Source of the DNA: an uncultured Dehalococcoidales bacterium
GTDB taxonomy: Bacteria > Chloroflexota > Dehalococcoidia > Lucifugimonadales > Lucifugimonadaceae
Reading direction: 5' to 3'
Length of the DNA: 64,000 nt
NCBI GenBank assembly: GCA_964474025.1
Contig: CAYYRD010000008.1
Coordinates: 53,593 to 117,592 of the forward strand
The notes below the pieces were generated by a model. It searched no databases, was not told the origin of the DNA, and saw nothing but the letters and a program-made list of their open reading frames with translations. Made by a program: the position numbers and the translations under genes. This document shows, piece by piece, positions 13,934 to 30,817 of this stretch (the stretch's first letter is position 1; every line of letters begins with the position of its first letter).

Positions 13934-14737
13934 TCACTCGCGTTTGCTTCCCGGACGCCGATCGAAGTCCGTGGTGAACCGAACGCCGAGATCGGACTCG
14001 GTACGTCCCACGTCGAACTTTTCACGCGCCCCGGGCGCTCCGATTAGATGGTATCGACGTAACCCGCCTTTCGGTTCGGAAGGCATGGATAACGCGCCGA
14101 GGCAGGCGCGGCCCACATCGTAGCGATCTATCCACGCGTCCTCGTGCATCGACCGCTCCCAACCGTCGTCGCCCCACTTCGATCTCCCCTGCTTCACATC
14201 CACGATGTCGCCCAACCGCAATCCGATCACGTCCATGCCATGAATAGCGGCGAACCAGGCGCCGACCTCTTCCTGCAGGTGCTTCGTGAGGTCGTAAATG
14301 TCGTCAGGCTGTCCGTAGTAAGGCGTATCGCCTGTTACTGATTCACCCGCCGGGCGTGTGACGTGCGTCTCTGCCGACGCGATGAATATCACCCGCCCGA
14401 TACCGGCCTCCCGCGCGGCCTCGAACACGTTGAATGTGCCGCGAACGTTCACGTCGAAAGGTTCTGCCTCACCGGCGCGGTAGTGGCCGTGTGCCAGCGT
14501 GCTCCGGACGGCGGCGTGAATCACCGCCTCCTGCCCCTCCATGGCGGCTCTCATCCCGATGTAATCCGTGATCGAGCCCGGAGTGGTTTCGACTTCCGCG
14601 TCCTCGGGCAAGACCGGGGATTCGACCGGAATATCGGGAGCCGCCAGATCAAACGCACGCACTGCGTGCTCCGTGGCCACGACCTCGGTCACGGCCTTGC
14701 CAAGCCAGCCGCGTGCGCCGGTGATCAGAACCTTCAC
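13934..14737 (-). CDS. NAD-dependent epimerase/dehydratase family protein
   Basis: MKVLITGARGWLGKAV Rossmann motif. GTG start lies 6 nt after the upstream stop. Confidence 0.8.
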   Translation of the reverse strand: MKVLITGARGWLGKAVTEVVATEHAVRAFDLAAPDIPVESPVLPEDAEVETTPGSITDYIGMRAAMEGQEAVIHAAVRSTLAHGHYRAGEAEPFDVNVRGTFNVFEAAREAGIGRVIFIASAETHVTRPAGESVTGDTPYYGQPDDIYDLTKHLQEEVGAWFAAIHGMDVIGLRLGDIVDVKQGRSKWGDDGWERSMHEDAWIDRYDVGRACLGALSMPSEPKGGLRRYHLIGAPGAREKFDVGRTESDLGVRFTTDFDRRPGSKRE

Positions 14738-14743
14738 TGCGGA

Positions 14744-16429
14744 TCAGGCACGGTCGTGTATCTCCACCGTTTGTGACGGGCCGTTAGTCATCATGACCAT
14801 GCTTTTCCCGGCGGGCCCGCCGAACGACACGATCTCGATCCGCTCCGGACGGTTGAACGCCGGGAAACTGGTGCGGGCCGCTTCTTCCGGGGATAGCTCC
14901 AGTAACCAGCGCCAGGGCGGCAGCAGCCAGTCCGGGTTGGCCTTGAACCCGTTGTGGAGTCCGGCCGCCGTCACGCGGGTCTTCGCCCACAGGTAGTCGC
15001 GCACCATGTCCTTTGACCATCCGGCATCTGTGCACACCCGGGCGTGGTCCGGGCAGAGGATCACCAGCGCCCCGCCCCCACCCTCGCGGTCGTACGGATC
15101 CGGGTCAGACCATCGGATGCCGAAATATCCGCCACCGCCTCGAATCCCGCCGGCCACGGTGTTCAGCACGCGCTCCGGGGTGAAGTTGTTAAGGTCCGCG
15201 GCGTCGATCAAGTTGCGCACCCCGGCCACCGTCACGGTGGAGGCACTCTTCGGGAATCCGCGCTCTTCAGCGAGCGACTCCCACGGGCCGCCTTCCACCG
15301 GCTCGGCGGCGCACAGCGAGAACTTGGAAGGCGCGCCGATGGTGTCCATGTCCATCTCGGTCGGGTAGTTGTGGCCGACATTCATCAGCACCAGCCGAAA
15401 CGCCCGCCCGAGGACGATGTTGACCCGCGACTGCTTGCCGGGACCGAGTGATGCCTTGCCGGTGTTCAATCCCAGTTCGTCCACGATAGGCCCGTTGAGC
15501 AGCATGATCGGCGCGTCCGGGCTTGTCGACATGAGCCACTGCCGCGCGCGAGAACCCATCTTGATGACCGCCTCACACGCGGCGATCAAGGCCGGGAGGT
15601 GTGACGGTTCGCATCCCGCCATCGCGGCGGATACAGCGATCTTCTGGACCGTCGCTATGCCCATTCCCGGGGGCAATATTCCGACGATGTGTTCCGGATC
15701 CAGTGACGTGCCGGACAGTATTTCGTTAACGCGTTCCGGTGTCGGCGGGAGCAGCGGGAGTCCATCTCCCCATCCGTTTTCCAGGAAGGCCTCGTTGAAC
15801 TGCGCCAGCGCGTCCATCTGATCTGTGCCGTCAAAATCAAGCGGCCCACCCGGCAACCGCTCCGGCAGGGGTCCGGAGTCTGCGAGGCCGGGCAGCGCTT
15901 CGGGATCGGTCAATCCCCGGACCACCACATCGATGCGCTCCGCAATGCTCGCCCGGGACCGTTCCGGCGGCACGCTCGTAATCACGTCCGGCACGACGAC
16001 GAAGGGAGCGCGAGGCATGCCGAAAACGCGTGCGCTCGCCACGGTGTCCTTCTCAAAGCCTGCGGACGCCACTGATACCGTGGGGATGCCCTTGCGCTCC
16101 AGGTAAATCATGTCGTGGACAAGCCACGACGTGCACTGCCCTCAGTCGCTTGAGGAGCCGACCACAACGTCACACTCCTCGGCCGCCCGGTCCAGCATGT
16201 CCGATGGTGTCGGGATGCTTCCCTGGTAGGTGGCCAGCTCGACGCCCGAGAAACGGTCGCTCAACATCGTACCCACCTGATCAAGGATGGCGTCTCCACC
16301 CCGTTTCCGGTTCCAGACGAGTCCCACCCGCAAACCGTCCAAGGTTGTGGGACGCGCTGCGATTTCCGTCTCGATTCCGGCCCCCTGCAGGGCGGCGACC
16401 GGGTTCATGACTGTGAGTTGGTGAGCCAT
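14744..16429 (-). CDS. GrdB/UGSC-like selenoprotein candidate (561 aa if the in-frame UGA at 16144-16142 is read as Sec)
   Basis: Track ORFs 16142..16429 and 14744..16111 are in the same frame (16144-16111=33) and separated only by TGA. The context is ...CDVVVGSSSD-U-GQCTSWLVHDMIYLERKGIPTVSV. GAGAGG Shine-Dalgarno before ATG 16429, but none before ATG 16111. Confidence 0.6.
16112..16130 (-). promoter_or_regulatory. SECIS-like stem-loop 11 nt downstream of the in-frame UGA
   Basis: mRNA GUCGUGG-CUUGU-CCACGAC: perfect 7-bp stem, 5-nt loop containing GU. Confidence 0.45.
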
Positions 16430-16622
16430 TTGGAGCCTCTCTGGCTGGTTCTGAGCGTATTACGTGCCGACTGTCTCACGAAGCTAGTCCCGCGCCCGCG
16501 GGCCGTCAACCGGAGCGGCTGTTTCCCGAACGTCACGCCGATCTCACTCTCGACCTGAATCCAGGAGATCACGGCGCGGTAACATGCCGCCGTCATGACA
16601 AGCGAACGCCTCCGGAAGCGAA

Positions 16623-18254
16623 TTGAAAGGGATGCGGCAGTTAAACAGCATCGCCCTGCGGCTAAGTCCACTACGGACCACTGATGAGCTGCGGTCATCG
16701 GTTCTCTGGGTCCGTGACGAGTTCGGCTACGACGCGATCGCTATTTACCACCATGACCCGGCCACAGGAGGCCTGCGGCTGGTGGCCGGCGGGGAGGATC
16801 TGGACACCGCAACCTGCCTGAGGCTTTTGGTCGACGCAACGACGGCGCCCGGCAAGGCGCTCATGACCGAGAAGACGGTGATGATCGCTAATGCCGCGGC
16901 GGAGGCTGATCCGGATTCAAGGTTGGCTCTCCGGAACGCCGGATCCGAGATGGCGGTCCCGATGCGGATCGGGATGCAAATGGTCGGAGTGCTTGACATC
17001 GCCAGTACCGAGACCGGCGCATTTGATGACATCGACCGGGAGACCGCAGAGGCGCTGGCCCAACTGGCAGCGATCGTGATCCAGAATGCCCAGTTGCACG
17101 GAGACCTGCAAAACGAGGTCGAAGACGTGACGGTGCTGGTCGCTATCGGACGGATCATCAACTCTTCGCTGGAAATCGACGACGTGTACGAGCCGTTCGC
17201 GCTGAACGTTGCCCGGGTGATTCCGTTCGACTGGCTGCACCTGACAGAAGTTGACACCGATCTTGACAGGGCGAGACACATGTTCATGGTGGGGCAGGAG
17301 TTCGCAGGTCGCGGTCGCGGCGAGTGGTGGCCGCTGGGAGGCACGTTTACCGAATACGTCATCGGGCACCGGACCGGCGTTACGGTCTCCGGGGAATCGC
17401 CGGAAAGGTTGAAGGAACTTTACCCTCTGCTGGCGCCGGTGATCGACGGCGGGGCGAAGTCGTTTCTGTCGGTGCCTCTGATCGCCCGGGATGAGGTGAT
17501 CGGAGCGCTACAGATGGGAACCAATGAGGGGAGTGCGTATTCACCCCGCCACATGGCGCTCGCCGAAAGGGTCGGAAACCAGATAGCCCGCGCCGTGGAA
17601 AACGCCCGCCTGTTCCGGGAGAACCGGGACCTGGGAGTTCTGGAAGAACGGAACCGGGTGGCGCGGGAGATCCACGACACCCTGGCCCAGGGATTCACCG
17701 GCATAGTGTTGCAGCTCGAGGCGGCGGAGCAGGCGCTGCAGGAAGCTCCGGAGGAGGTCTCCGAACACCTTGATCGAGCGAAGACACTGGCCCGTGGGAG
17801 CCTGCAAGAGGCGCGTAGATCCGTGTGGGACATGGTCCCGGAGACGCTGGAGCAACGGTCACTGGACAACGCGCTCGCCGACGCGGTCCGGGAGTTCGCC
17901 GAGACCGGTCCCGAGGAAACCACGTTCACGGTCGAAGGAGAGGTACGGTTCCTGCAAACAAGTGTTGAAACGGCGTTACTACGGATCTGCCAGGAATCAC
18001 TTACAAACCTGCGGAGACACGCCGGGGCGTCAGTGGCCAGCGTGAAGCTGAGTTTCGAGTCCGGCCGGGTCAAGCTGACCGTGAAGGACGATGGCAGGGG
18101 ATTTGATACAGCGGTGGCACGAGGTCGGGACGATGGCGGCGGGTTCGGGTTTATCGGGATGGAACAACGGGCACGTCTGCTACAGGGGAACCTCCTGGTG
18201 ACCAGCGGCCAGGGGGACGGAACGACTATCGAGGTAACGATGCCGACGGGATAG
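16623..18254 (+). CDS. GAF-domain sensor histidine kinase (HisKA_3 / NarX-type)
   Basis: Two GAF-like regions, then REIHDTLAQGFTGIVLQLEAAE (H-box) and an HATPase region (VKDDGRGF...GFGFIGMEQR). Confidence 0.9.
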   Translation: MKGMRQLNSIALRLSPLRTTDELRSSVLWVRDEFGYDAIAIYHHDPATGGLRLVAGGEDLDTATCLRLLVDATTAPGKALMTEKTVMIANAAAEADPDSRLALRNAGSEMAVPMRIGMQMVGVLDIASTETGAFDDIDRETAEALAQLAAIVIQNAQLHGDLQNEVEDVTVLVAIGRIINSSLEIDDVYEPFALNVARVIPFDWLHLTEVDTDLDRARHMFMVGQEFAGRGRGEWWPLGGTFTEYVIGHRTGVTVSGESPERLKELYPLLAPVIDGGAKSFLSVPLIARDEVIGALQMGTNEGSAYSPRHMALAERVGNQIARAVENARLFRENRDLGVLEERNRVAREIHDTLAQGFTGIVLQLEAAEQALQEAPEEVSEHLDRAKTLARGSLQEARRSVWDMVPETLEQRSLDNALADAVREFAETGPEETTFTVEGEVRFLQTSVETALLRICQESLTNLRRHAGASVASVKLSFESGRVKLTVKDDGRGFDTAVARGRDDGGGFGFIGMEQRARLLQGNLLVTSGQGDGTTIEVTMPTG

Positions 18255-18309
18255 GATGGCGTTAACCGCCGGACTCATCACAGGCCGGGAACAGTTTCAG
18301 GAAACAGGT

Positions 18310-18954
18310 ATGGAAGAAATCAGGTTGCTAATAGTCGATGACCACATGGTGGTCCGGGACGGGCTGGTGGCGATGCTCCAGCGCGAACCGGATCTGACGG
18401 TGGCCGGTGAGGCGCGTAACGGGCGTGAGGCGGTCGATAAGGCCCGTGAGCTGGAACCGGATGTGATCCTCATGGACCTCCGGATGCCGGAACTGGACGG
18501 CGTGGGCGCGATGCGTGAGATTCGCGAGGGCAATCCTGACGCCCGTTTTCTTGTGCTCACCACGTATGACACGGACGAAATGATCTTCGATGCGCTGGAC
18601 GTGGGGGCGAAGGGCTACCTGCTCAAAGACACGTCCCGGGAAGAGCTTTTCCGAGCCGTGCGGGCGGTGCACAAGGGCGAGTCCCTCATCCAGCCTGCGA
18701 TCGCAGCGAAAGTCCTGAACAGGCTCTCAGAGTTGTCGCACCCGCCTTCAGAGGCGGAGGGACTTTCGGATAGGGAGCTCGAGGTCCTGCAGGCCATGGC
18801 GAAGGGCGCCGGCAACAAGGACATCGCCGCATCGCTCTTCGTGACCGAGAGCACGATAAAGACCCACGTGGCCAACGTTTTTCACAAGCTCGGGGTGAAC
18901 CGGCGGACGGAGGCGGTGACCGAGGCGCTTCAGCGCGGGATCATCAAGCTTTAG
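18310..18954 (+). CDS. NarL/LuxR-family response regulator
   Basis: MEEIRLLIVDDHMVVRDGL...DVILMDLRMPELDG receiver domain plus a C-terminal LuxR HTH (LSDRELEVLQAMAKGAGNKDIA). An alternative ATG at 18256 abuts the kinase stop. Confidence 0.9.
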   Translation: MEEIRLLIVDDHMVVRDGLVAMLQREPDLTVAGEARNGREAVDKARELEPDVILMDLRMPELDGVGAMREIREGNPDARFLVLTTYDTDEMIFDALDVGAKGYLLKDTSREELFRAVRAVHKGESLIQPAIAAKVLNRLSELSHPPSEAEGLSDRELEVLQAMAKGAGNKDIAASLFVTESTIKTHVANVFHKLGVNRRTEAVTEALQRGIIKL

Positions 18955-19200
18955 CCTGCCGTCCCGGGCCGCGCCGCGCCGAACCCGTCAAAACCGCGGG
19001 CATCGTTCCTCGATGGCTGGGCCGAAAGTACGAGTCCCGGTAGTACTAACGGGGGAGACGGTACCGGGCCAGTTCGGCTTGCATGGATCAGACGGGCGAC
19101 CGATGGTGTTGTGCTGGTTCCGAGAAGACCATTGTGGCAAAGGGGCGCACCGCTTGCCTGCCCCGGTACTTCACGAAGCCGGTCGCTTCGGGAGAGTCAC

Positions 19201-19578
19201 TTGCCTCCAATCACGGTACTGGTCGTAGACGCCGCCGAGCCCATCCGCCACGGCCTGCGCGGCATCTTGAGGTCGGCCCCCCACATCGACGTTGTCGGAG
19301 AGTCCGCCAGTGGAGTTGACGCGATCGTGCAGGCGGAGAGGCTTCGCCCCGATGTGGTGCTGATCGATGCGGCCATCGCCGAACCCGGTGGCTGTGACCC
19401 TTGCGGCCGCATAAGGGAGATTGCTCCCGGATCGAAGTTCTTGTTCCTTCTCACATACGAGGAACAGCTTGACGCGGGCCTCGCAGCCAGGGCGGATGGT
19501 TACTGGCTAAAGGACGGCGGGCGCGACGCTCTCGTCCAGGCCATACAGTCCGCGGCCCCGCCGGAACCCGGCGCCTGA
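19201..19578 (+). CDS. Stand-alone receiver (REC) domain protein with an altered acidic pocket
   Basis: ITVLVVDAAEPIRHGL...DVVLIDAAI...FLFLLTYEE...GYWLKD. TTG 19201 is preceded by GGGAGAG. There is no output domain. Confidence 0.55.
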   Translation: MPPITVLVVDAAEPIRHGLRGILRSAPHIDVVGESASGVDAIVQAERLRPDVVLIDAAIAEPGGCDPCGRIREIAPGSKFLFLLTYEEQLDAGLAARADGYWLKDGGRDALVQAIQSAAPPEPGA

Positions 19579-19868
19579 TCGCTCTTTCCCTGTTTCTGCG
19601 TTTCTGCGCGCCCGGAGTCACACTCGCTTTCGGTTGTTCGCGCGGTTGATAGACGGACAGCGTCTCGGCTCAGCTGGGCGGCAATGGACAGAGAGCAGGC
19701 CATTGGCCCGGTCACCCAAAAGTATGAGCGGGGCTAGACCGTGTGGATGAGTGGAGGTTCGGATGTTTTGCCCACCGTATTTCAACTGACCTCCCGATGC
19801 TCTGGACCTGCGCCATCCCCAGAATCGTTCTCAACGAAAAGACGGGACCTGAATTACGTGAGGGCATC

Positions 19869-22169
19869 ATGCAGACCGCACAGTCATACAAGGGATCGAA
19901 TCTCTCCGCCACGGGCCGACTGGCGTCATGGAGCGCCCGGCACAAGTGGTGGGTACTCGGCCTGAGCATCTTCGCGATCGTCGTTTCGATGGCGGTTTCC
20001 AGCGCTGTGTCGCCGAAGATACTCGGCGATAACGACGCCGGACTGAAATCTGATTCCGCAAAGGCGGTCCAGCTGATTGACGAGCGGTTCGAGTTCGGTG
20101 TCGAGGACAACGAGCAACTCGTGTTCACGCACGGGTCTTATGACGCCGACGCGGGCGCCTACAGGGCGGTCGTTGAAGGCCTCGTCGAGGACCTTCGGAC
20201 CCTTCCAGAAGTCGCATCGGTCGTCACCTACTACGACACGGGTGATCGCGATGGCATGGTCGCCGATGACGGGCGCGTGCAGCGTGCTGATGTCGTCGTC
20301 GCTGATTCCGGCACAATCGCCGGTCCCGGGTCCGATATTGACTACGCCGAGCGCGTTAACCCGATTACCGAAACAGTATTCGCGGCCCGGGAAGAGGCCG
20401 AAGCGGCCGGGTTCACGATCGACATCGCAGGCGAGCTATCGATCAATACAGAGATCGACGAAATGGCCGAAGAGGACCTGGGCAGGGTGCTCATCATCTC
20501 GCTCGGTCTTGGATTGATTTTCATGCTCCTCGTATTCAGGGCTGTCGTGGCGGCGGTAATACCGCTCACACTGGCCATCGGGGCCATAATCATCGCCAAC
20601 GGTATGGCTGCGGTCATCAGCCAGTCGTACGCTCTTAACGAGTCCTACGGCGAGATGATTACGCTGCTGGGCCTGGCCGTAGGGATCGATTACTCCCTCT
20701 TCATCGTCAGCCGGTTCCGCTCCGAGCGGAAGGCCGGCGCTGCGAAGCTGGACGCCATTACCGTGGCGAGCAACACAACGGGTCGGGCGGTCTTCTACGC
20801 CGGGATCACCGTACTGCTCTCGCTCAGTGGACTGGCGCTGACCAACAACGCAATCTTCATCTCACTGGCCCTCGGCGCCATCCTGGTGGTGGCGGTTGCG
20901 ATCGTCGCTTCCCTGACGACACTGCCGGCGGTCCTGGCGATTCTTGGAGACAACATCAACAGGCTCCGCATCCCCTTCCTGAGCCGTGCAAATGGCGACG
21001 GCGTCTGGAGCCACATCGTTACACGTGTGATGGCCCGGCCTGCGATCTTCGCCGGCGTCACGGCCGCAGCCCTGATCGCCGTGGCCCTGCCGGTCCTCTC
21101 ACTGGACCTCGGTTTCAGCACCGGCTCTGCGGCGCTGCACGAAGACATGGAGACCAAGCAAGCCGTCGTCCTGCTTGAAGAGCACTTCACCGGCGGCCTG
21201 GCTGCCCCGGCTTACCTCGTCGTAGACGCTCCTGACGTAACCGCTCCGGAAGTGCGGGCCTCGGTGGCGCAGATCGTCGCAGCCGTCGGCCAGAACGAAG
21301 CTTTCTACCCGGCTTCGGATCCGGTACAGGGTCCGGCGGGCGATGCCCTTTTCATCGCCATCCCGCTCAGTGGAGATAGAGACGCCAACGAGGCGGCTGT
21401 AGACCTCCTCCGGAATGAAATCGTCACCGATGCCTTTGAGGGCACCGGCGCACGCGGACTGGTCACCGGAATGACCGCCTTCAGCATGGACTTCACGGCC
21501 CAGATGAAAGGATCAACCCCTTACGTATTCGGATTCACCCTCGGGCTGGCCTTCCTGCTCCTGCTGGTCATGTTCCGCTCGATCGTGATCCCGGTGAAGG
21601 CGATCCTCCTGAACCTGCTATCGGTAGCAGCCGCATACGGAGTCGTGGTGATGGTGTTCCAGTGGGGCTGGGGCGTAGGGCTCCTTGGCTCAGAGGCCGG
21701 AGTGATCGGCGCATGGTTGCCGCTCTTCCTCTTCGCCATCCTGTTTGGCCTGTCCATGGACTACCACATGCTCCTACTCAACCGCATCAAGGAAGGACAC
21801 GACAAGGGACTTTCGACAGATGAATCAGTCTCCCAGGGAATCCGGCTCACCGCAGGTCAGATCACGAGCGCAGCGGCCATCATGGTCGGAGTGTTCGGGT
21901 CCTTCGCCCTCGGACGGAACGTTGAGATGCAGCAGTTTGGAATCGGGCTTGGCGTGGCGGTCCTGATCGACGCCACCCTGATCCGCTCGATCCTGCTTCC
22001 GGCATCGATGAAGCTCATGGGTGACTTGAACTGGTACCTGCCGAACTGGCTCCAGTGGCTCCCCGACGTCAGCGTCGAGGGACCAGAGGCGGAGCCGGCC
22101 ACAAACACTGCCACGGTCCCCGGACCCACACCGGCTGCGGAAGCGATCCCGGTCGGAATGGGCGACTAG
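19869..22169 (+). CDS. MMPL-family (RND superfamily) membrane transporter
   Basis: Two blocks of about 6 TM segments each with large loops. Motifs GIDYSLFIVSRFRSE and GLSMDYHMLLLNRIKE. ATG 19869 follows GAGGG. Confidence 0.9.
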   Translation: MQTAQSYKGSNLSATGRLASWSARHKWWVLGLSIFAIVVSMAVSSAVSPKILGDNDAGLKSDSAKAVQLIDERFEFGVEDNEQLVFTHGSYDADAGAYRAVVEGLVEDLRTLPEVASVVTYYDTGDRDGMVADDGRVQRADVVVADSGTIAGPGSDIDYAERVNPITETVFAAREEAEAAGFTIDIAGELSINTEIDEMAEEDLGRVLIISLGLGLIFMLLVFRAVVAAVIPLTLAIGAIIIANGMAAVISQSYALNESYGEMITLLGLAVGIDYSLFIVSRFRSERKAGAAKLDAITVASNTTGRAVFYAGITVLLSLSGLALTNNAIFISLALGAILVVAVAIVASLTTLPAVLAILGDNINRLRIPFLSRANGDGVWSHIVTRVMARPAIFAGVTAAALIAVALPVLSLDLGFSTGSAALHEDMETKQAVVLLEEHFTGGLAAPAYLVVDAPDVTAPEVRASVAQIVAAVGQNEAFYPASDPVQGPAGDALFIAIPLSGDRDANEAAVDLLRNEIVTDAFEGTGARGLVTGMTAFSMDFTAQMKGSTPYVFGFTLGLAFLLLLVMFRSIVIPVKAILLNLLSVAAAYGVVVMVFQWGWGVGLLGSEAGVIGAWLPLFLFAILFGLSMDYHMLLLNRIKEGHDKGLSTDESVSQGIRLTAGQITSAAAIMVGVFGSFALGRNVEMQQFGIGLGVAVLIDATLIRSILLPASMKLMGDLNWYLPNWLQWLPDVSVEGPEAEPATNTATVPGPTPAAEAIPVGMGD

Positions 22170-22442
22170 GACCAACGCCGGCCTGCAAGGCCGGCAAGAA
22201 ACAACGGGGCCGCGTCTCTCCAGCCCTCACGAGACACGGTCCCGTTTTCTTTTGGTGTGGGAGTCAGACTCTGCCCTGAAGGCGTGGTCCTCGGGTTCCC
22301 GTTTCAGTCGTGGGGAACAGCTGCATCTATTGCTTCGGAAATTTCGCGCCGTCACTTGCGCACCCGGAGTTATCGGGGATCTCCGGGAACGCCACGGCAC
22401 TTCAGGCAAAAAGTTCCGGAACTGTGCGCCCTCATCGACCGG
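22143..22442. repeat. Direct repeat copy A (about 290 bp): MMPL 3' end plus downstream hairpins and palindrome
   Basis: Aligns with 25894..26183. Shared strings include cggaatgggcgac, gccggcaag, ccccgttttctttt, tgccctgaaggcgtgg and caggcaaaaagttccggaactgtgcgc. Confidence 0.75.
22203..22254 (+). terminator. Intrinsic terminator after the MMPL gene
   Basis: AACGGGGCCGCGTCTC-loop-GAGACACGGTCCCGTT followed by TTTCTTTT. Confidence 0.6.
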
Positions 22443-22662
22443 ATTCTTTCAATGGTCGCCTGGGCCATTCGCGGCCGTGCCATCCGTAAACTCGTTCCTG
22501 GTACAACTACTTCGATGACGAACATCGTCGCTGCTGGAATACCAACATATGAATCGGCAGACACGGGATGAAATATGTATGAATAGGGACAGTCAGATGG
22601 CCGTGAGTGGGGCAGTCCGGGCAATTCCTTGGAGAGTCACGAAGGAGTGATCGGACGAAACG

Positions 22663-25557
22663 CTATTCATGACCTGATTCGCCAGAATCGAATTGAGGGT
22701 CTTCGCCCGCCAGTCCGGTGCGGGTGGCAAAAGCGGCCGCTTCGGCGCGATTTGCTGCGCCGGTCTTGGCGAATATGTTCTGCACGTGGCGAACAACCGT
22801 GTTTGGCGAGATAGTGAGAGCCTGGGCGATTGCCCCATTGGTAAGACCACTGGCCACGAGCACAAGGACCTCGACCTCGCGCTCGGTCAAACCGGCGGCG
22901 TACGTCGTCCTCCCCCCGCGTCGCACGGGCGCCCGGTCGCTGAGCTCCGCGAGGCGTGCTTCAAGGGGCCGCATGCCAATCTCCCTGGTTATGGCGAGTG
23001 CCTCGTCGAGCAGCCCGAACGCCATTTCACGATCGCCAGGACCGGCGCGCCCGAGCAAGACTTCCGCGGCTCCCCCACACGCCCATGCCAGCCAGGGCCG
23101 GTAGCCCGCGTTTCTCGTGGACTCGATGACCGTCTCGAAACGGGCAAGCGCGTCATCGGCCCGCCCTACGGCTGCCGCCGTCCACGCAAGCTCACGGTCG
23201 CGATCCGGGACATCGGCGATCTCATCGTAAAACCGTTCGGCATCCGCCATATCACCGGCCTGTGCCAACACCTCGGCAAGCGCCCGTTTGGCATCAAACT
23301 CTATCGTCGTTAATGATCCGGCGCTGAGTACTTCCTCCGCGGCCGACCTGGCGATGGTTCGGAACTCGTCCAGATCAGTAATGCGAATGGCGTGGGGTAG
23401 CGTCGCCGTTAGCTGTGGGGCGGCGCCTGGATATGCCATGGCCTCGGACTTACTGCCATAGGATTCGCGCAACTTCTGGAGACGGGTCACGTAACTCTTG
23501 CCCTCGGTGACTTCTCCGACCTCCAACTCGACCAGCGCACGACGGGCGATCGCGCGTGCATCGTCCGCCCAGGCCTGCTGACTTCGGCCTAAGAACTCCC
23601 TGGCCCGATCCCACTCACCGAGGTTTGATGCCAGATCCCCTGCCATAAAACAAACGGTCGAGATCCGCTCCCTGTAACCAGAGCGTTGCGCCGCGGCAAT
23701 TCCTGCTTCGTACTGCTTGAAAGCTTCCTGGGGGTTGCCGCCCATGGCCAGGTCGTTTCCGGCGATGAAGCGAACCCCTGACTCCGTCAACGGGTCGTTC
23801 ACGGTTTCCGTCAAGTCAACGGCCCGCGCCAGGTATTCTGGATTCGGGCGGGCCCCTCGGATGGCAAACGTCTGCGCCAGCAACGCCATCCACAGCGCCT
23901 GAAACTCCAACGAGTGGTTGCCACGATCTTGAGCTATCTGCAATGCCCTGTCCACGGACTCGAGAACGACCTCTATACCTCGTTCGGTCGACTGGGCCAT
24001 TTGCAGCAGTATGTGGCCCTCATCCAAAGATCCGGGCGCAACCAGTTTGAGGGCTCGCTCACGAACGGATAGCAAGGCGTCGGCGATTTCGACGCTTACA
24101 CTCGGAAGCCGGGCGACGCTCACGGCGTCGCGGTTCCCACCTGTGGTTTCGTAATATTCGAAGGCGGCGGTCAGATCCGGAACCGCTTCCTCGAACTTGC
24201 GCAATGCCAGGTTTGCTCTCCCACGCCCGAAGCGAAGATCGGCAATCTCGTTGTCGATTGCATCGTCGCCCCGTGCAGCGAAAGCACGGTCGAAGTGAAC
24301 AACGGCTTGTTCGACACCTCCGGATTCCAGAGCCCGTTCACCTGCCGTTCGGCTGTAATGTATAAGTTTCGCTGTTCCGAGAACCGATTCTCCTTCGGCG
24401 AAATGCCTGGCCAATTCGGCGGCATTTTCGTCGGCGTTGTCGCCGTGAAACGATTCCATCTTGGTCGCGACCCTGGCATGTACTCGCGCGCGTCGCGTTG
24501 CTGAAAGCCTGGCGATCAACGTTTCCTGTATGAGCGCGTGAGTAAAGCGATAGAGGCCGACCGCGTCGGGGATTTCTTCTATCAGAGAGGTGCTCACGGC
24601 CCCTTCGAGCTGGTCCAATAAATTTTGGTCAGCGGCGTCGCCCAAAAGAATTTCCAGGTGCGAAGCCCGGAACTCTCTCCCCAGTACGGCGGCGACGATC
24701 AGCGCATCATTGGTCGATTCAGGCAAGCGGCGAAGACGGCGGCCTATAGCTTCCCGGACTCCGACCGGCACCCGGAATCCGTTTGGTCTTGAGTTGACCG
24801 AACGGCTCTGGCTCTCTCCTCCCGAATCTGCAAGATCACTGGCTATTTCCGACACGAAAAACGGGTTTCCAGCGGTCCGATCTTCGATATCCCGCAGTAA
24901 CTGTCCGCCGGGTGGGGTACCCGTCACGGCTGCGACGAGTTCACTGACCCCCTCGGTGTCTAATCCGCCCAGTGCGATCCGATGGAACAAACGGCCAGTC
25001 CCAATACCTCCGAGGGCTTCGGTTAAAGGGTGATCACTGGATGGATCGACGTCACGGTACATCCCGAGGACCATCACGTGGGACTCGTCGATGGAAGTGG
25101 CCGCAAATTCAAGAAGCCGGATCGAAGCCGTGTCCGCCCAGTGCAAGTCCTCAAGGATGAGCAGCACAGGCTTCTCTTCCGACGCCCGCCGAATAATCGA
25201 AGTGATGGCGTCAAATTGAAGAAAACGGACCTGCTCCGGGTCTGCGGTTTCAGGCCTCGTCGTGAAGTTTCGAGAACGCCCGGCCAACTCCGGCATTAGT
25301 CCGGACACGATGGGCGCGTGATATCCGAGTACGGCTTCAATCCGCTCATCGTCGAGTTCGCCGACGAGAGTCCTGAGCATCTGCGTCCACGGCCAGAAAG
25401 GAGGGGCGCCTGATTCTTCCGGACACCGACCCCACAGAATCAACGCATGGTGCCGGGCTGACGCCGCCAATTCTTCCGCCAACCGAGTCTTTCCGATACC
25501 CGGCTCGCCCACCAACATCGCGATTTGGCCGCGCCCCCTTTCGCTGCTTGAAAGCAC
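22663..25557 (-). CDS. LuxR/LAL-family regulator (AAA ATPase + TPR-like repeats + C-terminal LuxR HTH). The N-terminus is split by a frameshift.
   Basis: Walker A LVGEPGIGKTRL. C-terminal LTEREVEVLVLVASGLTNGAIAQALTISPNTVVRHVQNIFAKTG. The expected N-terminal 30 aa (MAAQRGQDQIIGREGEIGRLEECFQAAKGG) lie in another frame at 25536..25622. Confidence 0.85.
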   Translation of the reverse strand: MLSSSERGRGQIAMLVGEPGIGKTRLAEELAASARHHALILWGRCPEESGAPPFWPWTQMLRTLVGELDDERIEAVLGYHAPIVSGLMPELAGRSRNFTTRPETADPEQVRFLQFDAITSIIRRASEEKPVLLILEDLHWADTASIRLLEFAATSIDESHVMVLGMYRDVDPSSDHPLTEALGGIGTGRLFHRIALGGLDTEGVSELVAAVTGTPPGGQLLRDIEDRTAGNPFFVSEIASDLADSGGESQSRSVNSRPNGFRVPVGVREAIGRRLRRLPESTNDALIVAAVLGREFRASHLEILLGDAADQNLLDQLEGAVSTSLIEEIPDAVGLYRFTHALIQETLIARLSATRRARVHARVATKMESFHGDNADENAAELARHFAEGESVLGTAKLIHYSRTAGERALESGGVEQAVVHFDRAFAARGDDAIDNEIADLRFGRGRANLALRKFEEAVPDLTAAFEYYETTGGNRDAVSVARLPSVSVEIADALLSVRERALKLVAPGSLDEGHILLQMAQSTERGIEVVLESVDRALQIAQDRGNHSLEFQALWMALLAQTFAIRGARPNPEYLARAVDLTETVNDPLTESGVRFIAGNDLAMGGNPQEAFKQYEAGIAAAQRSGYRERISTVCFMAGDLASNLGEWDRAREFLGRSQQAWADDARAIARRALVELEVGEVTEGKSYVTRLQKLRESYGSKSEAMAYPGAAPQLTATLPHAIRITDLDEFRTIARSAAEEVLSAGSLTTIEFDAKRALAEVLAQAGDMADAERFYDEIADVPDRDRELAWTAAAVGRADDALARFETVIESTRNAGYRPWLAWACGGAAEVLLGRAGPGDREMAFGLLDEALAITREIGMRPLEARLAELSDRAPVRRGGRTTYAAGLTEREVEVLVLVASGLTNGAIAQALTISPNTVVRHVQNIFAKTGAANRAEAAAFATRTGLAGEDPQFDSGESGHE

Positions 25558-25893
25558 TCTTCAAGCCGCCCAATCTCACCCTCACGGCCGATTATTTGGT
25601 CCTGCCCGCGCTGCGCCGCCATCACTGCGGATGATACAGGACCGAAACATCACCGATTGGCACCGTACCGAGATCACCCTGCCTCATCAGACGACTGGGT
25701 AGCAAAAACGGTCGCAACTAATCGTGCGGTGAGGTAGATCCAATCATGATATTCAAGGATTACTAGTCCGTGGACGGCAGAAATCACCCGAGATCCGGCC
25801 CGGTCCGCTCACTCGCTTGTGAGGCTGGGCGCGAGGCTCCCGGTATGACCTTCACCCCGAATCTCGTGCCTGACTAAAGGTTAGGATTCCGAG

Positions 25894-26183
25894 GCGATCC
25901 CGGGCGGAATGGGCGACCAGGATCACCGCCGGCCCGCAGAGCCGGCAAGCCACAACGGGGCAGCGTCCCCTGAGGGCAGGAAAGACGCAGCCCCGTTTTC
26001 TTTTTGTTGAGGAATCAGACTTGCCCTGAAGGCGTGGCTCTCGGATCTTCTCATCAGTTGTGGGAGACCGGCACGACGGTTGCTTCCGGGAACTCCGGGA
26101 ACTCCGGGAACTCCGGGAACTCCGGGGACTCCAGAGGACATCAGGCAAAAAGTTCCGGAACTGTGCGCGATTCCTGATACCGG
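25894..26183. repeat. Direct repeat copy B (about 290 bp) upstream of the MFS gene
   Basis: Same order of blocks as copy A. It includes a relic of the MMPL C-terminal codons (gcgatcccgggcggaatgggcgaccagg versus gcgatcccggtcggaatgggcgactagg) and a terminator-like hairpin at 25954..26006. Confidence 0.75.
26085..26132. repeat. 9-nt tandem repeat (TCCGGGAAC x4, TCCGGGGAC, TCC) inside repeat copy B
   Basis: Read directly from the sequence. Copy A has only 1-2 units (ggggatc tccgggaac gcc). Confidence 0.9.
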
Positions 26184-26217
26184 CCCATCCGGGCCTTCGC
26201 TAGGATGACCCGTACTT

Positions 26218-27504
26218 ATGTCATCCCGGCAATCTCCAATAAACGTCACGGACAACATCGGCCCACTCTCCCCCGCCTACAACCGGTGGAAATTGCGCGC
26301 CCTTTTTGGGTTCGTCGGCTTCTACGTGTTTGTCTACATGGGCCGATTCGCCCTCTGGCCCGCTGCACCGGTCATCAAAGACGACCTGGGGTTTACACAC
26401 GTCGAAATCGGCATAATCAACGCCGCCGTCCTGTGGGGATTCGGGTTGGGCGACCTCGTGCATGGACGAATGGCCGAGACCTACGGACTGCGGCTATGGG
26501 TAATGCTCGGCGCAATCTCGACCAGCATATTCGCCGTAATCACGAGCTTCGCAAACGGGATCTGGACCTTCGCCATCCCGTGGGGATTTGCCGGCTTCGT
26601 CAACGCCACTGCCTGGGCTCCCGGAGTATCCCTGATCACACAGTGGTGGCCCCGCACCCAGCGCGGGCGCGCGCTCGGTGTCGTTGGATTCGGGGCCGGA
26701 AGTGCCATGCTCGTGATGTGGCTCGTCACGGGATGGGTCGCGTCGGAGTGGGGCTGGCGTGCTGCCTTCAGGTATCCACCACTGCTGATCGGCATCGCCG
26801 GGGTCGTCTATTTCCTGGTCGTCCGGGACCGGCCATCTGACGTCGGGCTGGAGCCGTACGAAGAGGACCCAAATTCATATACAGGCCGCGCGGAAGCGGC
26901 TTCGGCCGGCCAGTTAAAAGGATTCGGCCCATACAAAATCCTGTTCACCAACTGGCGCTTTCTGGCCGCATCCCACGTCAAAGGCCTTGAGAACATCGTT
27001 CGATACGGGCTGACGACCTGGGTCCCAATCTACTACTTCGAAGAGGGTGGGCTATCGATCGAATCCACGGTGCTGGTGACGGTTGCCCTGCCTGTCGGAT
27101 ACCTGACCGCCCCGCTGTTCTCCGGCTACATCTCTGACAGGTTCCTGGGTAGCCGACGCCGACCCATGACTCTGGCATCTGCGTTTATCAGCGCCGCAGT
27201 GTTGGTGATCATCGCGTTCACTCCGGCAAACAACGAGTTTCTCGGAGCATTTCTCTTGCTCATCGGCGGGTTTGCCATGAGCCTCACTCTCATAGCCGCG
27301 ACCGCCGTCGACATCGGTGGTCGGCACATGGCGGCGACCGCCAGCGGAGTGCTCGACGCCCACGGATACGCTTACGCCGGCGCTCAGGCCCTCATATTCA
27401 GCGTCATCCTGGATGCCAGCGGCAGCCCGTGGGAAATCGTGTTTATCGCGATGGCCGGAGTCCGGCTCATCTCGGCCGGAATCATCTGGCTGGTGCGCAT
27501 CTAA
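26218..27504 (+). CDS. MFS transporter (sugar-phosphate/organic-anion permease-like)
   Basis: 12 predicted hydrophobic segments. GRFALWPAAPVIKDDLGF...GFGLGDLVHGRMAETYGLR resembles the MFS_1 loop 2-3 motif. Confidence 0.85.
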   Translation: MSSRQSPINVTDNIGPLSPAYNRWKLRALFGFVGFYVFVYMGRFALWPAAPVIKDDLGFTHVEIGIINAAVLWGFGLGDLVHGRMAETYGLRLWVMLGAISTSIFAVITSFANGIWTFAIPWGFAGFVNATAWAPGVSLITQWWPRTQRGRALGVVGFGAGSAMLVMWLVTGWVASEWGWRAAFRYPPLLIGIAGVVYFLVVRDRPSDVGLEPYEEDPNSYTGRAEAASAGQLKGFGPYKILFTNWRFLAASHVKGLENIVRYGLTTWVPIYYFEEGGLSIESTVLVTVALPVGYLTAPLFSGYISDRFLGSRRRPMTLASAFISAAVLVIIAFTPANNEFLGAFLLLIGGFAMSLTLIAATAVDIGGRHMAATASGVLDAHGYAYAGAQALIFSVILDASGSPWEIVFIAMAGVRLISAGIIWLVRI

Positions 27505-27584
27505 GCCCCGTGTAGACTGCGCCGAGCGAAAGCGCCTTGATGCGACGGTCATGGCAGCTACTTCGTCAGCCAGGGAGGTGTCTG

Positions 27585-28676
27585 ATGCGGATACCACGCA
27601 CCACGGAAGAGATCACGCCGGAGTGGCTGACCGAAGCGCTACGCGCCGGGGGACACCTGGACGAAGGGCGTGCCGAGTCTGTCCAGTTCGAGCGCATCGG
27701 TATTGGACTCGGATTCGCATCACTGGTGGCGCGCGGCGTCGTCCATTACGCAGACAATTCAGGGGATGCGCCAACGACAATCGTCGCGAAGTTGCCGTCC
27801 GGTCATGCTGAGACCGATGAACTGGTCACACGCATGGGATTTGCCGACCGTGAAGTCCGGTTTTTCAGCGAAATTGCCCTCAACGTTGGCGTCCCTGTTC
27901 CGCGCCATTACTACGCCGACAGCGATCGCTTGACGGGTGAATACGTTCTGTTGCTGGAAGACCTGTCCGAAGCGCGACCTGGCGATCAGGTGAACGGGTG
28001 TTCACCGGAAGACGCGGAACTTGTCGTCAGGAATCTCGCAATGTTGCACGCCCGGTGGTGGGAGAGCGGCCAGCTGGATAGTTTGGATTGGCTATTCGCT
28101 ACGGCAAATCCGGAAACACTTGGAGTGATAGCCGACAACTATAGATCCAACTGGGAGCGGGTCGCTGCGGCAGTCGGCTCCCGATTTCCTGACGGTGTTT
28201 ACACAATCGCCGAGCGTCTGGGGCCGCATTTCGAGGGAACGATGCGGCCACTCGGTGAATCTCCCGTCACGCTCAATCATGGCGACGGCCGACTCGGCAA
28301 CCTGTTTTTTCGAGACAACGGTGGGAGTCCCGAAGTCGTACGGATCGACTGGCAGTTGGCATCACAATCCCGTGGCGCAGCCGACCTGGCTTATTTCATC
28401 ATCTTCAGCTTTTCGCTGGAGGAACGGCGGCGACATGAAGGGGCCCTTCTACACATCTATCACGATGCGCTGGCGGAATACGGAGTCAGCGGTTATTCAT
28501 TCGATCAGCTGAATGACGACTACCGACTGGGATTGTTCCGCTTTCTGACGATAGGCGTCGGTGCGCTCGCCAACCTCGATATGGACAGCGAGGCCGGTCG
28601 AGCCACAATCGAGGCGGGGTTACCACGCCTGACGGGACTGGTCGACTGGGATTGCGGCGCGCTGATCCCGGATTAA
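27585..28676 (+). CDS. Phosphotransferase-family protein (APH / CHK / EcKL-like kinase), paralog 1
   Basis: MRIPRTTEEITPEWLTEAL..., catalytic LNHGDGRLGNLFF and IDWQLASQSRGAADLAYF. GGGAGG lies 6 nt before ATG 27585. Confidence 0.8.
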   Translation: MRIPRTTEEITPEWLTEALRAGGHLDEGRAESVQFERIGIGLGFASLVARGVVHYADNSGDAPTTIVAKLPSGHAETDELVTRMGFADREVRFFSEIALNVGVPVPRHYYADSDRLTGEYVLLLEDLSEARPGDQVNGCSPEDAELVVRNLAMLHARWWESGQLDSLDWLFATANPETLGVIADNYRSNWERVAAAVGSRFPDGVYTIAERLGPHFEGTMRPLGESPVTLNHGDGRLGNLFFRDNGGSPEVVRIDWQLASQSRGAADLAYFIIFSFSLEERRRHEGALLHIYHDALAEYGVSGYSFDQLNDDYRLGLFRFLTIGVGALANLDMDSEAGRATIEAGLPRLTGLVDWDCGALIPD

Positions 28677-28744
28677 CGTGGCACTTAGACTGCGTGGGCC
28701 GATGAACGTCGTCGACCTACCGACACAGACGGAGAGTTAGACCC

Positions 28745-29800
28745 CTGGCGATCCCCCGAACGCTGGACGAAATCACGCCCGAATGGCTGTCATCGGTGCT
28801 GCGCGTGAGCGTGGATTCGCTGATAGTCGAACCCACAGGAAACGGGTATACCGGTTCCCTTGGACGCCTGACAGTTAGTTATCCGCGCGACTCCGCCACA
28901 CCCGCCACACTCATCGCCAAACTACCGTCCACAGATTCCCAGATCCGCCGCTACGCCATCGATGATGGCATGTATCGCCGGGAAACCCGTTTCTATCAGG
29001 AGCTGGCGGCAGACTCCAGCATCTCTGTCCCGGACTGCTACCACGCGGAATTCGATAATGACTCCGGCGAATTCGTTCTCCTGCTCGAAGATCTGGTCGG
29101 ACTGGAAGAAGGCGATGAGCTCGCCGGATGCTCATTGGAGCAAGCGGCAAACGTCGTCCAGAGCCTCGCCCGTTTACACGCGGCCCGGTGGAACGACCAC
29201 CGCGTCAGCACACTTCAATGGCTCGTCGGCCCTGACTCTCCGTCGTCGACCGCCACCGGGCTTCAAAACATCTACGTGGATGCCTGGCAAAAAACGTCGA
29301 ACACCCTGGCCGAAATTTACCCGGCAGAGACGTATAAAATCGCGGACCGTCTCGGACCCGGACTCGCTTCCGTCCTGCGGACGGCAGAAACAGGGAACCA
29401 GGCGCTCAATCACGGCGATGCCCATCTCGGAAACACCTTCTTCCGGGGAGACGAGGCCGTATTCGTGGACTGGCAAAACGTCATGGTAACCAGCCCCGCG
29501 CTCGACATCGCTTACTTCGTACAGGGCAGCCTTCCCGTGGAAACGAGGCGCGCTAACGAACGCGATCTGCTCGACATCTACATGGACACGCTTGCCGAAA
29601 ACGGCGTGACCGGATACAGACAAGACCAGCTGATTCAGGATTACAGGCGAGGCCTCCTGAGAACCCTGATCCCATCGGTGTTGTCGATGGCCAACCTGGA
29701 CATGACCGCGCCAGAATCCCGCGATCTCGTGGAGACAATCGGCGCGCGCATGATCGGGATTGCAGACTGGGACTGCGGAGCGCTAATCCCGGCCTCATAA
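28745..29800 (+). CDS. Phosphotransferase-family protein (APH / CHK / EcKL-like kinase), paralog 2. Probable CTG start.
   Basis: LAIPRTLDEITPEWLSSVL aligns residue for residue with the paralog 1 N-terminus. LNHGDAHLGNTFF and VDWQNVMVTSPALDIAYF. The first canonical start (GTG 28796) would remove the conserved N-terminus. GGAGAG lies 8 nt before CTG 28745. Confidence 0.75.
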   Translation: MAIPRTLDEITPEWLSSVLRVSVDSLIVEPTGNGYTGSLGRLTVSYPRDSATPATLIAKLPSTDSQIRRYAIDDGMYRRETRFYQELAADSSISVPDCYHAEFDNDSGEFVLLLEDLVGLEEGDELAGCSLEQAANVVQSLARLHAARWNDHRVSTLQWLVGPDSPSSTATGLQNIYVDAWQKTSNTLAEIYPAETYKIADRLGPGLASVLRTAETGNQALNHGDAHLGNTFFRGDEAVFVDWQNVMVTSPALDIAYFVQGSLPVETRRANERDLLDIYMDTLAENGVTGYRQDQLIQDYRRGLLRTLIPSVLSMANLDMTAPESRDLVETIGARMIGIADWDCGALIPAS

Positions 29801-29848
29801 AATTGAACCACACACAGACATGGCCTCACCGCCCTCGCGGGTCTATGA

Positions 29849-30817
29849 TTGCGGGCGCGGAATTTCGGCACACTTTTTTCGGTCAGGAGTCCCTTGGCAT
29901 CTTCGGAAGGTAATGCGACCCCCGGGCTGAGCCTCCTTGAAGCGGCCCGACGCTCCGGTCTCGACATCGCCGAGGCACACGAGCCCGCCGACAAGACCGT
30001 CGAGCTAAACGGCCTCAAGTTCCACTACCTTGACTGGGGCAATGACCACCTTCCAGACCTGCTCTTTTTGCACGGAACGGCGCAGCAGGGCCACTCCTGG
30101 GACTTCGCTTCGCTGGCGCTGCGGGATCGTTTCCACTGCATCGCCCTCGACCAGCGCGGCCACGGCGATTCCGAGTGGGATCCTGACGGCAACTACGGCG
30201 CGCCAACCTACGTTCCGGACGTAGCGGCCTTCGTTGACACGCTCGGTTTGCAGGACTTCGTTATGGTCGGCCACTCGATGGGTGGTCGTAACGCTTATAC
30301 CTACACATCCGCAAACCCGGACAAAGTCCGCGCCCTGATCGTCGTGGACGCCGGGCCCCGGATGGAAGAGCCGGGCGGCGCACGCGTCCGAAACTTCATG
30401 GCCGGACAGAGCCAGTTCGACACGTACGATGATCTCGTCGAGCGCGTCCACTCTTACCTTCCGTCCCGGCCCATCGAACAGTTGCGCGGGAGCCTGGTGC
30501 ACACGACCCGGCAGTTCCCGAACGGAAAATGGGCCTGGAAGTACGACCCCAACATCCGGCGACCGGTCAACGGCCCGGACGATTCCGAGGAAGCCCGCTG
30601 GGAGACGCTCTCAAAAATCACCTGCCCGACCCTCTACGTAATCGGCGGGGACAGTGAGATGCTCACCCCGCCGAGTATCGAGCGCATGCTGGCGGTCATC
30701 CCCGGCAGCAAGGCCGAAACGGTGGAGCGGGCGGGTCACCTGGTGGCGGGCGACAACCCGGCCGGATTCCATGCGGCCGTATCGCCCTTCCTGGATTCTT
30801 TGACGACATCGGCGTAG
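29849..30817 (+). CDS. Alpha/beta-fold hydrolase
   Basis: LLFLHGTAQQGHSWD...LDQRGHGDSEW...MVGHSMGG nucleophile elbow. TTG start is uncertain. Confidence 0.85.
   Translation: MRARNFGTLFSVRSPLASSEGNATPGLSLLEAARRSGLDIAEAHEPADKTVELNGLKFHYLDWGNDHLPDLLFLHGTAQQGHSWDFASLALRDRFHCIALDQRGHGDSEWDPDGNYGAPTYVPDVAAFVDTLGLQDFVMVGHSMGGRNAYTYTSANPDKVRALIVVDAGPRMEEPGGARVRNFMAGQSQFDTYDDLVERVHSYLPSRPIEQLRGSLVHTTRQFPNGKWAWKYDPNIRRPVNGPDDSEEARWETLSKITCPTLYVIGGDSEMLTPPSIERMLAVIPGSKAETVERAGHLVAGDNPAGFHAAVSPFLDSLTTSA

Follow-up and report, generated by a model that had tools for sequence, protein, structure and literature searches.

The locus described here lies within a 64,000-nucleotide stretch of DNA, analysed at its full length and referred to below as the window, from an uncultured Dehalococcoidales bacterium of the marine SAR202 lineage (contig CAYYRD010000008.1 of assembly GCA_964474025.1, positions 53,593 to 117,592). 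Its genes run in the order GAF histidine kinase, NarL-type regulator at 18256-18954, single-domain receiver (RR), MMPL-family transporter, a large LuxR-type regulator of the LAL family on the minus strand, OPA-like MFS transporter, two EcKL-family kinases, a hydrolase and a second MFS transporter. The LAL gene is bracketed by two direct repeats, copy A and copy B, and the origin of these repeats is the subject of the present analysis. Relatives of the locus were reached via the MFS protein, and all of them are Dehalococcoidia or SAR202 metagenome-assembled genomes (MAGs). The sister species is represented by two independent assemblies, L010 (an Arabian Sea MAG) and L082 (JGI 3300035250). The principal features of the locus are listed here.

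19743..22169, plus strand: MMPL-family transporter (gene-caller start 19797; Pfam MMPL, E = 6.8e-71), 88% identical in nucleotides to its L010 ortholog
22140..22429, plus strand: copy A, the native MMPL 3' end and intergenic region, found by BLASTN against copy B, with 89% identity between its 5' part and the lone L010 spacer
22430..22662, no strand: left insert flank, downstream of the LAL stop; unique and of lower GC content (0.54-0.56)
22663..25622, minus strand: LAL-family regulator gene (AAA_16 ATPase, TPR and GerE/LuxR helix-turn-helix (HTH) domains by Pfam)
25623..25890, no strand: right insert flank, unique and free of relics of neighbouring genes; from its position, the presumed LAL promoter region
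25891..26168, plus strand: copy B, with an MMPL-end relic, hairpin 1, a relic terminator and the MFS upstream region
26218..27504, plus strand: OPA-like MFS transporter (Pfam MFS_1, E = 1.9e-47; NCBIfam PgtP/GlpT-like models matched only below their cut-offs), at the head of the MFS-EcKL-EcKL-hydrolase-MFS cluster

The two copies share an orientation and align over 291 columns at 72.5% identity (BLASTN with copy A as query and the window as subject, E = 5.6e-40). Global alignments of A with B, compared with shuffled sequences, gave z = 15 for the 5' half and again for the 3' half, a similarity far above chance for GC-rich intergenic DNA. A first-pass annotation, made from the letters of this DNA alone, had described repeats of about 290 bp that align block by block; reading and alignment confirmed the coordinates and all five blocks, including a conserved tcagact(c) block, and the shuffles did not bear out the possibility it had raised that low-complexity, GC-rich DNA might account for the resemblance. 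There is no third copy in the 64-kb window, where the next-best BLASTN matches reach only E ~0.2, and the unit does not recur in 90 fetched loci, or about 1.2 Mb of related loci. Over the window and these loci the copy number is two, and not the dozens that would point to a generic repeat element.

The content of the repeat is revealing of its nature. From left to right, the unit comprises the final 27-30 nt of MMPL, a short hairpin, an intrinsic terminator and the sequence that precedes the MFS promoter. Its left edge is the MMPL coding end and its right edge lies at 22429 in copy A and at 26168 in copy B. The unit is the MMPL-to-MFS intergenic spacer, present twice. More specifically, the MMPL stop codon TAG (22167-22169) is matched in copy B by CAG (25918-25920) in a non-coding context, so that copy B carries a relic of the gene end, as had been proposed from the first reading. 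Between the copies lies only the oppositely oriented, frame-disrupted LAL gene, again in agreement with that reading (open reading frame (ORF), Pfam and frame analysis); 22430-25890 contains no other ORF with a Pfam domain and no transposase, recombinase or integrase gene. The composition of the insert is not distinct, its short flanks excepted.

The state of the locus in relatives indicates how this arrangement came about. L010 and L082 possess the NarL-type regulator, the RR, MMPL, a single spacer of 281 and 279 nt, respectively, and MFS, without a LAL gene; in other words, they retain the empty site. The window flanks are 82-93% identical in nucleotides to those of L010 and L082, and the two species are mutually closest in five flanking segments. 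In the outgroup L015, a C-terminal MMPL remnant precedes a 100-nt spacer and MFS, again with no LAL gene, while in more distant relatives a UGSC gene adjoins MFS directly. A search made to date the event found no relatives nearer than L010 and L082 for MMPL, MFS or LAL. Because L010, L082 and L015 all lack the LAL gene, the most parsimonious reading is that the gene is an insertion specific to the window lineage. An old duplicative insertion of the regulator into the MMPL-MFS intergenic region was one of two origins suggested in the first-pass annotation, and the adjacency of MMPL and MFS in relatives without the regulator, by which it could be recognized, is seen in both L010/L082 and L015.

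The age of the duplication was approached by splitting the repeat after the terminator and comparing each half with L010.

5' part (MMPL end, hairpins, terminator): A-L010 89%, A-B 77% and B-L010 76% identical; unique changes 4 in A, 6 in L010 and 22 in B
3' part (terminator to promoter): A-L010 71%, A-B 76% and B-L010 73% identical; unique changes 19 in A, 17 in B and 21 in L010

The 3' part thus shows a star-like three-way split of A, B and L010; in all, shared sites number 27 for A and B, 39 for A and L010 and 23 for B and L010. The 5' half would accordingly have been constrained in A and L010 and free to drift in B, and the 3' half would have drifted at close to the neutral rate in A, B and L010 alike. 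In the neighbouring native genes (NarL, RR and MMPL) the window and L010 diverge by 0.21-0.37 at four-fold sites, and their native intergenic regions are mostly 74-87% identical; the duplication seems to be of about the same age as the divergence of the two species. A crossover mosaic derived from a diverged circular donor was considered and rejected, since the sub-block site counts are star-like and reveal no switch point.

Taken together, the two repeats are quite probably diverged copies of the MMPL-MFS spacer, duplicated in the window's SAR202 lineage when, or just before, the 3.46-kb LAL segment was inserted. Copy A would have kept the part of the spacer that works on the left, namely the MMPL end and its terminator, and copy B the part that works on the right, upstream of the MFS promoter; the remaining halves (the right of A and the MMPL relic in B) would be relics with no evident role. 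Copy A would end the MMPL transcript and, via its A-tract/T-tract symmetry, probably also the convergent LAL transcript, while the relic terminator of copy B could shield the MFS promoter from antisense transcription or read-through out of the LAL region. Three routes are candidates: single-crossover integration of a circle carrying the spacer and LAL, a template switch during replication, in which LAL was copied from another place and synthesis then restarted 290 nt further upstream, or a tandem duplication in which the first promoter and MFS copy were later replaced by LAL.

The closest known pattern is the product of single-crossover (insertion-duplication) integration. In Campbell-type integration of a non-replicating circle, the insert comes to lie between direct repeats of the target segment. 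The locus shares with such products the repeats of the target segment on either side of the insert, the truncated, non-functional gene end at the start of the downstream repeat and the empty site in a relative. Unlike in them, the insert carries a single regulator gene and no replication, integrase or vector-like genes, no donor circle was found, and the copies are 24-28% diverged, such that the event is not reconstructable. The repeats are an ordinary rearrangement scar rather than a mobile repeat or an RNA element, and the locus is an instance of a known rearrangement, not a new kind of element or mechanism. Its value is mostly as a clean, dated example of how a locus already in place acquired a regulator gene, in a marine lineage that is uncultured and rich in paralogs. 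The spot, upstream of the MFS-EcKL operon, differs between lineages in what it has taken up: no regulator at all, a two-component system together with MMPL, a PknK-like STAND kinase, or LAL.

Several points weigh against a simple spacer duplication of this kind. The junctions bear no signature of a particular mechanism, be it a recombinase or transposase gene, terminal inverted repeats or, in the insert flanks, relics of neighbouring genes. The region just to the right of copy B (~26300-29850) is not sister to L010, and a more complex recombination history at the locus is certain. A 28-nt block at the right edge of the repeat is perfectly identical even in the relic half of copy A, which simple decay does not predict. 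The regulator is frameshifted, making its present-day function doubtful. Finally, the timing amounts to a trichotomy, in which the duplication may precede the split from L010, with L010 having lost the insert.

This last order of events defines the first alternative, in which LAL and both copies are ancestral and the single spacer of L010 is a deletion produced by recombination between A and B. The star-like three-way comparison is compatible with it, the L010 spacer is A-like at its left end (89%) and runs on into the B-side promoter at its right (47/55), the pattern expected of a crossover product, and the L010 lineage is losing the module, its histidine kinase being deleted and its MMPL gene split by a frameshift in two assemblies. 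However, MMPL adjoins MFS in the outgroup L015, where LAL is missing, no other sampled lineage possesses a LAL ortholog, and L010 is about equally far from B (73%) and A (71%) over the 3' part. An ancestral insert is therefore unlikely, although it fares better than the other alternatives.

The second alternative arises from the tract to the right of copy B. Over ~26300-29850 (the MFS body, EcKL1 at 27537-28676 and EcKL2 at 28796-29800) the window is 66-80% identical to L010 and L082, no closer than it is to distant relatives, and L010 itself lacks EcKL1. L010 stays close to L015 throughout this tract, and the sisterhood of the window and L010 returns abruptly at ~29850. The tract looks like a replacement by recombination with an unsampled SAR202 lineage. 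Copy B, perhaps together with LAL, might then have arrived from a diverged SAR202 donor along with the MFS-EcKL tract, through recombination that had its anchor on the right-hand side and an illegitimate join at 22429/22430, so that A and B would be the same spacer from two lineages. Several observations fit: the tract is 73-80% identical to L010, whereas its flanks reach 88-93%; four-fold-site divergence from L010 is 0.51-0.55 in MFS and EcKL2 against 0.21-0.37 in NarL, RR and MMPL; the A-B identity (76-77%) resembles that of the foreign tract; and in the 5' part B falls outside the pair formed by A and L010, with 5 of its 22 unique sites matching the more distant L083. On the other hand, 26160-26342 is native-like (86.9% to L082), so that a single import needs an extra double crossover. 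The 3' part exhibits no mosaic of donor and recipient, A, B and L010 being equidistant, and a donor with LAL directly beside a 27-nt relic of MMPL would call for an explanation of its own. Nor was any donor lineage identified; the best MFS homologs are 85-89% identical, and none of their loci has LAL upstream. Because the ~180 nt between copy B and the tract are native-like, duplication in place is favoured, with the tract as a separate neighbouring recombination event, and the import of copy B is rather improbable.

A further reading concerns the right end of the repeat and the presumed MFS promoter beyond it, where the following features lie.

22402..22429, plus strand: 28-nt block of copy A, identical to 26141-26168, with the palindrome AGTTCCGGAACT at 22412-22423; right edge of copy A
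26085..26132, plus strand: 9-nt tandem repeat (TCCGGGAAC), five copies in the window
26141..26168, plus strand: 28-nt block of copy B, with the palindrome at 26151-26162, centred ~45-50 nt upstream of TAGGAT
26169..26217, plus strand: presumed MFS core promoter and leader, outside the repeat, containing CGCTAGGATG (TAGGAT 26201-26206); 47/55 identical to L010

An identical 3' block containing a palindrome was part of the original description, and it proves to be an uninterrupted 28-nt run, for which a run-length test gives p = 0.006 given the overall identity of 72.5%. L010 has AGATCCGACAACT in place of the palindrome, with 7/31 positions unique to L010, and the exact 12-mer occurs in no other fetched locus. 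Palindrome matches with <=2 mismatches number 11 in the window (2 expected), the best of the additional ones, at 62053, falling within the coding part of recF (LSNFRNY). Together with the GGAAC repeats, the palindrome is a plausible candidate for a protein-binding site upstream of MFS, and the 28-nt block is the best candidate operator of LAL or of the neighbouring NarL-type regulator. Its preservation in both copies of the window lineage could be due to function in both places, to gene conversion or to its being a crossover site. Since the block is identical in both copies and decayed in the sister species that lacks LAL, it is a candidate for a site that works twice, either as an operator that flanks the LAL gene and is bound by LAL or the NarL-type regulator, or as the sole stretch still of sufficient length for homologous recombination, through which LAL could be excised. 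Such a double role has only a small chance of being correct. If the block were an operator, LAL would be coupled to the MFS-EcKL operon, for instance by looping; if it were a recombination stretch, a crossover would cleanly excise LAL with copy B and restore MMPL-spacer-MFS, making the segment a reversible, recombinase-free cassette.

A wider distribution of the block, as a dispersed repeat or regulon, was rejected: a degenerate 24-mer covering the window-type and L010-type blocks gave 9 matches among 241 million metagenome records, all unrelated in GC content, genes and flanks, and a scan of viral contigs for the block gave no match. GGGRACT motifs are absent from the other intergenic regions of the locus. 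The sole intergenic near match to the palindrome outside the repeats is AATTCCGGAACC (core TTCCGGAA) at 12908-12919, between an adh_short and an RraA-like gene, in an intergenic region poorly conserved with respect to L010 (63%). The resemblance of the GGGACT half-sites to those of a DosS/DosR-like system had made that identity a candidate for the upstream two-component system; it was dropped, as NCBIfam returned only generic NarL-family matches below their cut-offs.

The putative MFS promoter is marked by conserved motifs. CGCTAGGATG is present in all eleven MFS orthologous loci examined, 10-14 nt before the ATG, and CGCTAGGATGG (window 26196-26207) is kept in L009-L018, L067, L087 and L090, whatever lies upstream. 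The conserved TAGGAT motif is probably the -10 element of a near-leaderless promoter, or else a translation signal; as a -10 element it would place the centre of the palindrome near -56 and the 9-nt repeat at ~-80 to -130. The 9-nt repeat varies in number, with three copies in L006 (from another sample and 18 nt shorter; L006 3790-4010), two in L010, and one exact and one degenerate copy in copy A. Four Logan contigs begin within it, and the starts of two ENA contigs lie 28-43 nt upstream of it. Its expansion may be recent and possibly polymorphic near the promoter, or the differences may reflect collapse by assemblers.

The hairpins of the repeat bear on a further possibility, that the unit is under selection as an element in its own right.

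22177..22195, plus strand: hairpin 1 of copy A, GCCGGC, 7-nt loop, GCCGGC; stem invariant in A, B and L010
22203..22253, plus strand: intrinsic terminator of copy A (that of MMPL), a 44-nt hairpin with T-tract; -48.2 kcal/mol, z = -6.3
25928..25946, plus strand: hairpin 1 of copy B, GCCGGC; stem invariant in A, B and L010
25954..26005, plus strand: terminator hairpin of copy B; -41.6 kcal/mol, z = -3.9; loop is the reverse complement of that in A and L010

The GCCGGC hairpin reported for both copies is present at the positions listed. The copy A terminator starts 34 nt after the MMPL stop and has the makeup of a Rho-independent terminator, with a GC-rich hairpin followed directly by a T-tract (TTTTCTTTT) downstream of a gene; its hairpin is 42/44 identical to that of L010. 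An A-rich tract upstream makes it potentially bidirectional, so that it probably can also end the convergent LAL transcript. Copy B shares the architecture, including TTTTCTTTT, with no gene upstream on that strand. A simple terminator scan missed both hairpins, whose loops exceed 8 nt. The first-pass annotation had noted that the stems of the two terminators differ yet stay complementary and precede the same T-tract, and this is correct, both folding far better than shuffles. The annotation had taken compensatory stem changes to suggest selection on the hairpins, a suggestion that did not survive. In an alignment of A, B and L010 covering the two helices, 0/21 pairs changed on both sides, a covariation count of low power with only three sequences; a single one-sided change was seen (G-U to G-C), and four pairs have lost their pairing in one of the sequences.

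The differences between the terminators are instead explained mainly by a single loop inversion. The central 16 nt of copy B match those of A at 12/16 positions as the reverse complement, versus 5/16 forward (p = 5e-5), and over the whole 44-nt hairpin the match is 36/44 in the reverse orientation versus 29/44 forward, with the length unchanged at 44 nt in both copies. Inversion of loops by template switching during replication is known for RNA hairpins (PMC8794818, Mönttinen and Löytynoja 2022; also PMC5453318, Löytynoja and Goldman 2017), the published cases being mainly in rRNA and microRNA with short (4-8 nt) loops. The copy B terminator agrees with the inversions described in PMC8794818 in its reverse-complemented loop, preserved length and complementary stems, one event explaining a cluster of apparent substitutions, and its loop appears to have been flipped in this manner. 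It differs from them in that the central segment is ~16 nt long, the hairpin is a bacterial intrinsic terminator, the comparison is between paralogous copies and the direction is given only by L010. As L010 shares the orientation of copy A, the flip most likely occurred in copy B. Template-switch inversion preserves pairing automatically, and so leaves stems complementary without selection; once it is allowed for, the excess of changes in copy B shrinks and the argument for stem selection disappears. The locus is thus a cautionary case, in which different yet complementary stems mimic compensatory evolution and from which selection on RNA structure is not inferable.

The 290-bp unit as a functional, reusable element, whether a repeat like the miniature inverted-repeat transposable elements (MITEs), a structured RNA or small RNA gene, or a terminator-operator cassette, was the other origin suggested at first reading, as a reusable regulatory or RNA module. 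It could draw on the two stable hairpins and T-tract retained in both copies and on the one perfectly conserved 28-nt block. Nevertheless, it is highly improbable, for the unit has two copies in 64 kb and none in the related loci, the scans of metagenome records and viral contigs gave unrelated chance matches or none, terminal inverted repeats are absent, a search of both strands of 21900-26500 against Rfam 15 returned nothing at E <= 1, no pairs covary, and the left edge is plainly the MMPL coding end. The classes of mobile element to which direct repeats around an insert, or intergenic repeats with hairpins, might belong were rejected in the same comparison. MITEs, repetitive extragenic palindromic (REP) elements and bacterial interspersed mosaic elements (BIMEs) occur in many copies, and no inverted pair is found here at the ends of the unit or of the insert. 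Insertion sequences and transposons duplicate 2-15 bp of target instead of ~290 bp, and the insert holds the LAL gene only, without a transposase. An integrative element with attachment (att) sites was rejected as well, there being no integrase or recombinase gene and the flanks being unique non-coding DNA; as regards an identical core at both junctions, an identical 28-nt block ends each copy on the right, and the repeat runs 260 nt further left at ~72% identity. A structured RNA family finds no Rfam 15 match.

Assembly artefact, as a two-strain chimera or misjoin, would agree with the many short contigs that end inside the 9-nt repeat but can practically be dismissed, because the structure is identical in independent assemblies (five independent contigs from JGI and ENA samples share the same 7.9 kb, frameshift included) and the copies, at 72% identity, are too different to be collapsed or joined strain variants. 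The window is contained in JGI contig Ga0115656_1000124, and contigs from other samples are 100% identical to it over 19700-27600, the 9-nt tandem repeat excepted. JGI samples 3300008627 and 3300007508 and ENA samples SUTE22-1 and SCRA20-1 are those that contain this species.

LAL regulators are large ATP-binding members of the LuxR family, of which MalT is the prototype and to which actinobacterial pathway activators also belong. The gene between the repeats has the domains of this group: an AAA_16/STAND NTPase (E = 2.4e-23, 83.9 bits, cut-off 32.6) with the Walker A motif GEPGIGKT, TPR repeats (TPR_12, E = 1.4e-9, 38.4 bits, cut-off 30.1) and a C-terminal GerE/LuxR HTH (E = 9.7e-16, 57.6 bits, cut-off 23.5). 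It resembles the group in this domain order, in its length of ~960-990 aa and in being transcribed divergently from a transporter/kinase operon. It differs in that its reading frame is not intact near the N-terminus: the original start is the ATG at 25622 (MAAQRGQDQIIGREGEIGRLEECFQAAKGG), and a 1-nt frameshift at a G5 run near 25534-25538, common to all assemblies, cuts off the first ~29 codons from the rest, leaving an intact ORF of 964 codons (25557-22663). An otherwise intact frame of this length beside flanking repeats diverged by ~24% suggests that the gene was probably under purifying selection for most of its long residence; the disruption would then be recent, or the truncated protein still usable. 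Against the NCBIfam MalT model, the match is confined to the HTH and scores far under the cut-off.

Among 5.8 billion proteins the best LAL match other than itself is 53% identical, and LAL has no paralog in the window. Its closest relatives (P0002-P0004; 52-53% over 89% of length) are, in contrast to it, PknK-like fusions of an N-terminal Ser/Thr kinase domain with AAA_16 and TPR, without a C-terminal LuxR HTH. The SAR202 STAND family is very large (>5,000 matches at E <= 1e-20), and the combination suggests domain swapping within it. A donor context was sought and rejected: the closest homologs P0003 and P0004 adjoin an SCO4226-like gene in unrelated surroundings, and no relic of that gene lies beside the window LAL. 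Similarly, the deletion of a tandem cluster, which would leave remnants of a second MMPL/MFS cluster in the insert, was rejected when BLASTX, BLASTN and TBLASTN of 22430-22662 and 25558-25890 found nothing. The left flank (22430-22662) resembles nothing else in the window, no fetched locus and none of the MMPL, MFS or SCO4226-like proteins.

Given the divergent arrangement, and a PknK-like STAND gene in the same position in L017, LAL most likely controls the divergently transcribed MFS-EcKL operon. The L017 gene (2727-6937, minus strand; Pkinase, AAA_16 and TPR domains) is split in two ORFs, diverges from the orthologous MFS at 7116 and matches the window LAL in position and orientation at 35% identity. 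The parallel is a hint that STAND-type regulators and the MFS-EcKL operon have become associated more than once.

The spot upstream of this operon is an insertion hotspot in the clade. Because UGSC lies directly next to MFS in distant relatives, the two-component/MMPL module is itself an earlier insertion here. The GAF-kinase/NarL/receiver/MMPL module (window 16623-22169, compared with L087, L090 and L018) entered the older UGSC-MFS intergenic region, the halves of which are still recognisable at about 16430-16530 and 26190-26217. In the sister species this module is decaying (L010 5688-5696 and 7397-9722; L082 1686-3867). The equivalent of window 14027-18130, histidine kinase included, is missing from L010 and L082, and in both of these independent assemblies a frameshift divides the MMPL gene into two overlapping ORFs.

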